A stretch of DNA of 64,000 nucleotides from Mytilus trossulus. Its lineage: Eukaryota. This document shows positions 61,941-63,001 of this stretch, one piece after another (position 1 is the stretch's first letter; each line of letters opens with the position of its first letter). The stretch covers positions 58,280,001 through 58,344,000 of the forward strand of contig NC_086374.1 of the NCBI RefSeq assembly GCF_036588685.1, written 5' to 3'. The translations under genes and the position numbers were made by a program. Below the pieces are notes generated by a model, which did no database searches, was not told where the DNA came from, and saw nothing but the letters and a program-made list of their open reading frames with translations.

Positions 61941-63001
61941 ACGTACATTACCGAATGTGAATTATAATCGTATTTTTACTTTCAATGAATAACATGACGG
62001 GTGCCACTAATTGGCCATGAACAGCTTACCCTTTCGGAGAACCCGAGTTCATCCCCAGTTTTTGGCGGGATTCTGTGTTGATAAATCCGAGTTTAGTTTT
62101 CTGAATAGTGTTTCGTTATTATTTTTTTTATTACTTTTAGTATTTTTTTCTTTGTCACGATGTTGTCTGTTTTTATTGGACTAAATATGATTTTTTTTTC
62201 TTTTTGGTGTCTTCTTTCACTTTTCAAATATTTACGTTCAGCACAACTGTTTCTATTTTGTTAAGGAAGTAATTTTTGTTATCACAATACGTAAATTTAA
62301 ATATTCAAAAAGTAATAGTACTAATCCTCTATGGTTTCTAGATTACTTGTGCAACGGTGTCTTTGTACCTATCTATAACAAATGTTACTGGTTGACGTCA
62401 ACCCCTGATTTCTGGTATCCAGGCAAAACAACTTGTCTCAATGGTGGAGGACAACCAGCATCGTTCCCAGACGTAAACACTTACATTTACGTTGTCAATG
62501 CTTTGGGAATTTATGGAAGGTAAGTCTGGATCAAACTTTGTTTCCCTCCAAATTCCCCACATTGCTGTATGAACCACTGAGGGTTCACGCATATAGATTG
62601 GTAGATTTTGTAGTCTTTCGGAATACCGGAAGTCTCTATTGTCTTTTCGGAATACATCTATTCTTTTCTATGCCCTACTGTGTAATAAGTAATTATTAAT
62701 CTAACGAATATGCATTAGCGTTTTGCAGTTGCTATAGAGTTAAGTGTTTATCGAGACTAATTGATATTCTACATAAGTAGTTAATTATAAATTAATTAGA
62801 GATGCATGTGTGAAGTTTTCTGCAACACACGCTGCGTTCACATTGGAGATGATATTTTAAGCGAAAAAAGTTACCGTTAAAAACTGGGGATGAACTCGGG
62901 TTCTCCGAAAGGGTAAGCTGTTCATGGCCAATTAGTGGTACCCGTCATGTTATTCATTGAAAGTAAAAATAGGATTATAATTCACATTCGGTAATGAACG
63001 T
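61941..63001. repeat. Near-perfect 123-bp inverted repeat flanking exon 4
   Basis: 61941-62063 is the reverse complement of 62879-63001 with about 3 mismatches. Confidence 0.92.
62342..62519 (+). CDS. Exon 4: N-terminal half of a second C-type lectin domain
   Basis: Branch point tactaat, ttctag acceptor. 178-nt phase 1-2 exon: YLCNGVFVPIYNKCYWLTSTPDFWYPGKTTCLNGGGQPASFPDVNTYIYVVNALGIYG. Consensus donor AAG|gtaagt. No downstream WIG exon recognised inside the window. Confidence 0.85.

Follow-up and report, generated by a model that had tools for sequence, protein, structure and literature searches.

A 64,000-nt stretch of the Mytilus trossulus genome (NCBI RefSeq assembly GCF_036588685.1, contig NC_086374.1, positions 58,280,001 to 58,344,000 of the forward strand), here called the window and numbered from its first letter, contains a likely mussel lectin gene in which one short exon, exon 4, is bracketed by two near-identical sequences in opposite orientation. 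The question raised by this locus is whether such a pair acts on the exon or only records an event in the history of the DNA. A sequence-only reading had favoured the former and proposed a switch, by circularisation, skipping or inversion of the exon, that could diversify or silence a lectin. In our analysis, the arm pair is probably a recent repair scar and not a switch. The features of the repeat are the following:

61921 to 62228, plus strand: 5'-truncated remnant of a Naiad-like Penelope retroelement (3' untranslated end), from alignment to family loci L054 and L018; start uncertain, 61921 to 61958
61941 to 62063, plus strand: left arm, the donor; 5' part of the old retroelement remnant
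62879 to 63001, minus strand: right arm, an inverted copy of the left arm without the element's 3' ~165 nt; present in runs X1, X2 and X4

The arms and their retroelement family

Local alignment joins 123 bases of the two arms without gaps, 120 of which are identical (97.6%), with mismatches at left/right positions 61945/62997, 61970/62972 and 62003/62939 and a longest perfect stretch of 60 nt (62004-62063). A spacer of 815 nt separates the arms; the left one ends 278 nt before the exon 4 acceptor at 62342, and the right one begins 359 nt after the donor at 62519. The arms as originally described (123 bp, about three mismatches, 278 and 359 nt from the exon) agree exactly with this alignment. 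The pair scores 209 bits in BLAST, and the best inverted match in ten of ten shuffled windows reaches at most 46.4 bits. The arm duplex has a predicted energy of -218.8 kcal/mol, and in the modelled MFE fold exon 4 lies in a loop closed by the paired arms. An Rfam search of 61700-63300 returned a single match at chance level (E 0.55), and an exact 24-nt arm stretch had no match among metagenome contigs.

Four DNA runs (X1-X4) were compared with the locus, with 32 of 1207 records, 40 of 105 variant rows and 15 of 18 joints listed; in all, seven of 20 listed runs were examined, and uncovered bins were never taken as evidence. The independent runs X1, X2 and X4 fork at the arms, with contigs entering the right arm up to 62908, and the right outer junction is bridged in X2. 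Because all three show the same two-arm fork, the inverted repeat is no assembly artefact. It had also been claimed that the arms are far more alike than other dispersed old repeats of the window. The arms do stand out among long inverted pairs, of which they are the most alike, yet they are not the most alike repeat there, being surpassed by LTRs at 99% identity and by perfect tandems.

Within 223,883 nt of control loci, we found no inverted pair of at least 100 nt at 95% identity or more within 3 kb, which makes the window's pair a large example. The same loci hold two unshared inverted pairs (42 nt, 98%; 76 nt, 93%) and one pair from another dispersed family. The unshared short inverted duplications lie at L032:443-641 and L064:1-489 and have no near-identical copy in the other loci. 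Together with two perfect tandems in the host introns, these pairs show that local duplications are common here. When such a pair is placed at random in the gene, exon 1 being putative, an exon falls between its arms in 16% of cases (1856 of 11310).

To place the arm sequence, repeat-family loci were fetched by an exact core-motif scan, which yielded at least 122 loci, possibly from another mussel species. Among the 122 loci listed, family matches cover window positions ~61987-62228 on the left and the arm only on the right, in keeping with the earlier observation that the left arm alone runs on into repeat sequence, which we trace to ~62228. Several family loci have long upstream sequence in common. 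The window copy shares 140/189 and 212/286 aligned identities (~74%) with the RT-bearing copies L054 and L018, which align with it from 61921-61958, and almost all of the arm therefore descends from an old retroelement; a previous assignment of its outer 46 nt to unique intron was dropped on the same grounds. The L054 ORF encodes 463 aa with an RVT_1 match (E 3.5e-6, below Pfam's cut-off), a DKA motif and a stop directly after the RT; it has no match in the PDB. Judged by the Naiad criteria in section 6 of PMC8557442, the arm family appears to fit the Naiad clade of Penelope-like elements, the fetched loci ending within or just before the RT, short of the place where the N-terminal GIY-YIG endonuclease and the CxC motif would lie. 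The likeness, as that section describes the clade, lies in the DKA motif, the ORF ending right after the RT, the heavy 5' truncation and the lack of an Rfam ribozyme (no match at E 0.1, hammerhead included, in the eight of 122 listed loci searched). An identity with Helentron, MgE or Pearl was dropped, the family being the 3' end of an RT ORF; MgE, with central tandem repeats between conserved flanks according to the relevant part of PMC7492417, is set apart here by description.

Arms that belong to a dispersed family could be two independent young insertions, or the TIRs of a DNA transposon with a captured exon, and the family is indeed of very high copy number: depth at 62024-62064 is ~100 times single copy. 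We regard this explanation as barely credible. Over 61987-62063, the arms differ at one base, and no family copy exceeds 84% (best 84.4% to the left arm and 83.1% to the right, median 75%, among the 122 loci listed). Only 13 of 7381 pairs of listed family copies reach 97% or more. Four short motifs of the window copy point the same way, with three found in none of the 122 listed loci and the fourth in two, and both arms carry changes absent from all 122. Contigs of the runs that contain the locus agree, high-copy matches of at least 85% piling up on 62024-62064 only. Moreover, the arm family represents the 3' terminus of an RT element, the outer flanks of the arms show no target-site duplication, and exon 4 keeps both order and frame with exons 2 and 3 and with homologous proteins. 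The earlier inference of a local duplication is thus upheld (97.6% identity between the arms, at most 84.4% to any of the 122 listed copies), and the refuting case named beforehand, in which both arms would be young members of a high-identity family, is excluded by family coverage together with this identity ceiling.

The right arm stops inside the element; its 3' end is clearly internal, and its 5' end is probably so, in that L018 aligns from 61921 (weak by itself). In the Penelope elements as PMC8557442 in part describes them, 5'-truncated copies keep the 3' end, and insertions often include an inverted copy that is itself 5'-truncated and adjoins the 5' end. Without the last ~165 nt of the element's 3' end, the right arm fits neither an ordinary 5'-truncated retrocopy nor the inverted copy that typically adjoins the 5' end in Penelope, and in this it departs from the Naiad likeness (PMC8557442, in part). 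Being 3'-truncated and ~650 nt downstream, it does not match the description of a Penelope-type inverted partner made at insertion. When the flanks of the right arm, or their join, were compared with the repeat at 56900-57800, none of six comparisons rose above 100 shuffles.

Paralogue, probable polymorphism and the origin of the copy

X1 contig 5 is 715 nt long and shows 16 differences within 62092-62180; X4 contig 28, of 1171 nt, shows 34 within 202 nt over exon 4. Both are diverged relatives collinear with the window locus, 82-83% alike, and are most simply read as a paralogue, the alternative being a very divergent allele. X1 contig 5 matches inside the remnant (62092-62180) and both contigs match within 61945-61977, so that an earlier view of the paralogue as free of the repeat was dropped. 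Because both contigs run unbroken across the homologue of the arm, the paralogue has no near-identical arm partner. The remnant thus probably predates the gene duplication, and the inverted copy probably postdates it. The check on arm conservation suggested by the first reading therefore turned out negative in the paralogue, where the pairing is not kept; the contigs are unbroken through the arm homologue and the variants are arm-specific.

The second locus, ~83% alike, has an exon 4 end and donor (~62478-62528) close enough to the window's to fork the assembly graph (X1 contig 5, X4 contig 28, X3 contig 20), and a short conversion tract between paralogues is possible there. Two X4 contigs skip the right arm, one passing from 62866 to 63187 and the other from 62666 to 63023 with 17 other letters; both come from diverged relatives and are not orthologous empty sites.

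Among individuals, the right arm is present in three of the four DNA runs (X1, X2, X4). In these the arms collapse from 61971, 61988 and ~62002, respectively, to 62063, and the collapsed arm contigs of X1 and X2 show no differences from the left arm. The variants that could be assigned are specific to one arm: 62939 (window), 62955 and 62964 (X2), 62018 (X3) and ~62941 (X4, deduced from the point where a contig breaks). At 2.4%, divergence between the arms is comparable to mussel heterozygosity, given as 1.73% in the available part of PMC7653742. In X3, by comparison, a single 803-nt contig crosses 61705-62506 at depth 12.6 with no fork, the downstream region being mostly uncovered. X3 is probably without the right arm, because it is unforked at this depth although X2 forks at ~6; we hold absence of the arm in X3 to be fairly likely, no empty site having been read directly. 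Its presence in the window and in three of four runs under three organism labels makes the inverted copy common, and either drift or selection could give this commonness.

An older inverted pair, for example one dating from the retroelement insertion, might instead have been kept alike by repeated gene conversion. This alternative draws on the closeness of the arm's outer end, 61941, to the 5' boundary of the remnant (61921-61958), and on the inverted copies that Penelope insertions often include. The inverted copy described for such insertions is, however, 5'-truncated and 5'-adjacent, whereas the right arm is 3'-truncated, ~650 nt downstream and past a host exon; moreover, the paralogue has the remnant but no near-identical partner. 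Conversion would also be expected to leave changes common to both arms, and none of the five variants among the 40 of 105 rows listed is of this kind, small as these numbers are. We therefore consider repeated conversion unlikely.

The pair could also make exon 4 invertible, with recombination between the arms flipping 62064-62878 and switching the gene off. Any inverted pair permits this in principle, and the perfect stretch here is 60 nt. Against this, the X3 contig is in the reference orientation, X3 being the only informative run since X1, X2 and X4 collapse at the arms; the interior of the paralogue is in the ancestral orientation; and no recombinase family was found in seven of seven stop-to-stop ORFs of at least 150 aa in the window. 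An invertible exon is thus highly improbable. The ancestral orientation of the paralogue's interior further excludes a staggered-break inversion as the origin of the arms.

We accordingly think it quite likely that the right arm arose recently by templated copying, in inverted orientation, of 123 bases from the old Penelope-type remnant, probably in the repair of a DNA break, and that it likely has no selected role. The order of events would be insertion of the retroelement, duplication of the gene and then the inverted copy. A broken end in intron 4 may have primed on DNA ~0.9 kb upstream, whereupon ~120 nt would have been copied from the opposite strand before the ends were rejoined; the outcome would be an inverted pair that is common and probably still polymorphic. 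Templated inverted insertions at DNA breaks, as described in part of PMC11724301, resemble this arrangement in that a stretch close by serves as template for an inverted copy whose two ends lie within the donor. The foldback duplications reported there for yeast differ in being mostly 5-34 bp and adjoining the break, whereas the mussel copy measures 123 bp and lies at a distance of 815 bp. By this analogy, templated inverted insertion, known at shorter lengths in the same part of that source, would be the closest described process for the copying. Read in this way, the repeat is an ordinary structural variant.

The host gene and the splicing of exon 4

Whether the arms nonetheless affect the lectin depends on what exon 4 encodes and how it is spliced. 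The exons of the host gene within the window are as follows:

49644 to 49713, plus strand: putative exon 1, signal-peptide-like, bounds approximate; read from the sequence only
54547 to 54792, plus strand: exon 2, 246 nt, phase 1 to 1, PAN/apple domain (Pfam PAN_1, E 4.1e-5, above cut-off)
59865 to 60032, plus strand: exon 3, 168 nt, phase 1 to 1, N-terminal half of the outer C-type lectin domain; acceptor used in X20 RNA contig 23
62342 to 62519, plus strand: exon 4, 178 nt, phase 1 to 2, N-terminal half of the inner C-type lectin domain; donor used in X20 RNA contig 24

Exon 4 is bounded by AG and GT, and its length leaves a remainder of 1 on division by 3, so that skipping it alone shifts the frame, as had been pointed out. 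Exons 3 and 4 alone gave nothing in Pfam, and a word-index search with exon 4 likewise returned nothing. The domain order was read from relatives. The Mytilus PAN and C-type lectin proteins VDI03184.1 and A0A6J8BDK2 ('CLEC3A') share with window exons 2-4 the order PAN, half C-type lectin domain, C-type lectin domain; they are paralogue-level relatives (34-36% to P0020), and the window gene's own exons after exon 4 lie outside the window. Full length, P0020 and P0035 (Mytilus coruscus, A0A6J8BDK2) run PAN, half domain, whole domain, half domain. We built a lectin HMM from 60 domains of ten distantly related multi-lectin matches, leaving out close relatives. The outer pieces of these two proteins match HMM states 12-59 and 70-138, and once joined score 80.5 and 87.2 bits over the full HMM, with 48.8 and 44.7 bits for the inner domains. 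A single domain of the mannose receptor behaves in the same manner, its residues 352-386 and 399-439 matching P0020 95-128 and 271-311. The simplest reading is that this host family carries an inner C-type lectin domain inserted into an outer one, the other pairing being of crossed halves. AlphaFold models of P0020 (mean pLDDT 31.6 alone, 42.8 with 18 sequences) were unusable, and the ESM Atlas offered PAN/Lectin_C mollusc clusters but no structure; with both structure predictions unusable, the nested architecture rests on sequence alone.

The proteins compared in this apparently nested family are P0020, P0004, P0035, P0016 and P0036; the M. edulis model P0036 is without both outer halves and P0016 without the last half, and these are possibly isoforms or incomplete models. 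Judging by titles and the starts of abstracts, with subscription journals mostly uncovered, no paper describing a nested C-type lectin architecture was apparent, and we find this architecture more surprising than the inverted repeat. Of the inner domain, only the first half lies between the arms. Removal of exons 4 and 5 together could leave a whole outer domain; the phases of exons 5 and 6, outside the window, are inferred, the prediction being that exons 4 and 5 make up a phase 1-1 cassette and that a join of exon 3 to exon 6 keeps the frame.

RNA evidence comes from runs X17 and X20, whose kind was guessed as RNA, and X14, whose kind is unrecorded, with 15 of 69 joints and 24 of 17167 records listed and a depth over the gene of 2-4. 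X20 contig 23 spans 59863-59996. Its remaining 93 letters agree with the depth at the end of exon 2 (2.9 x 93/296 = 0.91), and this depth arithmetic supports a splice from exon 2 to exon 3. X20 contig 24 covers 62359-62519 and continues with 62 letters found nowhere on 54400-63250. Since the bin depths of 0.26 and 0.99 equal those of the exon part alone, this contig is a forward splice and no back-splice, and it probably leads to exon 5 beyond the window. X17 and X14 offer only unspliced contigs of intron 3 and exon 4, which may be pre-mRNA or DNA. Among the 15 of 69 joints listed for the three runs, at depths of 2-4 where rare circles and skips are invisible, there is no junction from 62519 to 62342, none from exon 3 to exon 5 and none from exon 3 to exon 4.

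Arms paired in the pre-mRNA could in principle loop out exon 4 and yield a 178-nt circle together with a frameshifted exon 3 to 5 message, and hence less lectin in carriers. The very stable duplex predicted for the arms favours such a functional RNA switch, as do the reverse-complementary matches reported to promote back-splicing and skipping in C. elegans (PMC8330042, in part), and the effect could be allele-specific, the arm probably being polymorphic. By analogy with zip-2 in the same part of that source, where complementary intronic arms likewise lie within a few hundred bases of one exon, the mussel pair could act as a match that drives back-splicing. The analogy fails on conservation, the zip-2 match being kept across five nematode orthologues and the mussel pair missing from the paralogue and probably from some individuals. 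Further points tell against a switch: the exon 4 donor is used forward in X20; human single-exon circles come from unusually long exons, according to the portion of PMC6376117 that treats them, and exon 4 has 178 nt; a continuous reading of the circle meets stops; the arms bracket half of the inner domain and not the module of exons 4 and 5; and circles tied to young repeats are argued in part of PMC8516420 to be mostly by-products. A search for literature on Mytilus circRNA and on circularisation of short exons found nothing specific.

The switch proposed at the outset thus finds little footing, in that the pair is young, absent from the paralogue, probably missing in one of four individuals and placed around half a module, and the only informative RNA contig uses the exon 4 donor in the forward direction; we judge a functional role in RNA quite improbable. 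The same low standing applies to its segregating form, in which a repair-born repeat would be an allele-specific off-switch, producing the 178-nt circle and the frameshifted message, such that individual mussels differ in nested-lectin output. If true, it would add a layer of cis-RNA structure to the presence/absence variation of mussel immunity. Under the preferred reading of a repair scar, the arms are predicted to be able to pair in the pre-mRNA and may yield some exon-4 circle or frameshifted skip as a by-product. Carrier and probable non-carrier haplotypes nonetheless constitute a natural experiment on whether one new 123-bp duplex is enough for back-splicing or skipping of a short mollusc exon.

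Other repeats in the window

The window holds several further repeats. A young BEL/Pao LTR retrotransposon occupies 18851-26566 on the minus strand, with LTRs (18851-19613 and 25880-26566) that are 99% identical apart from a ~76-nt gap; its coding region is broken into four overlapping ORFs, which match RVT_1, Peptidase_A17, rve and DUF5641. The perfect tandem duplications in lectin introns 1 and 2 comprise two copies of 287 nt (53308-53881) and two of 69 nt (55058-55195), and are either recent or assembly artefacts; the 287-nt tandem adjoins a 235-nt imperfect palindrome at 53093-53327. An inverted pair at 34633-36046 and 37087-38522, with ~1.4-kb arms that are 85% alike and a 1041-nt spacer containing internal repeats, resembles a foldback element. 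A second RT-type repeat family, Penelope-like by eye, lies at 50080-51436, 13720-14647 and 60879-61358 and has a 184-aa ORF with no Pfam match; an end piece of this family in intron 3 is extremely abundant in the RNA-like runs. Finally, a 166-nt tandem array at 29417-30872, with a dispersed shorter copy at 9028-9334, is satellite- or HINE-like.
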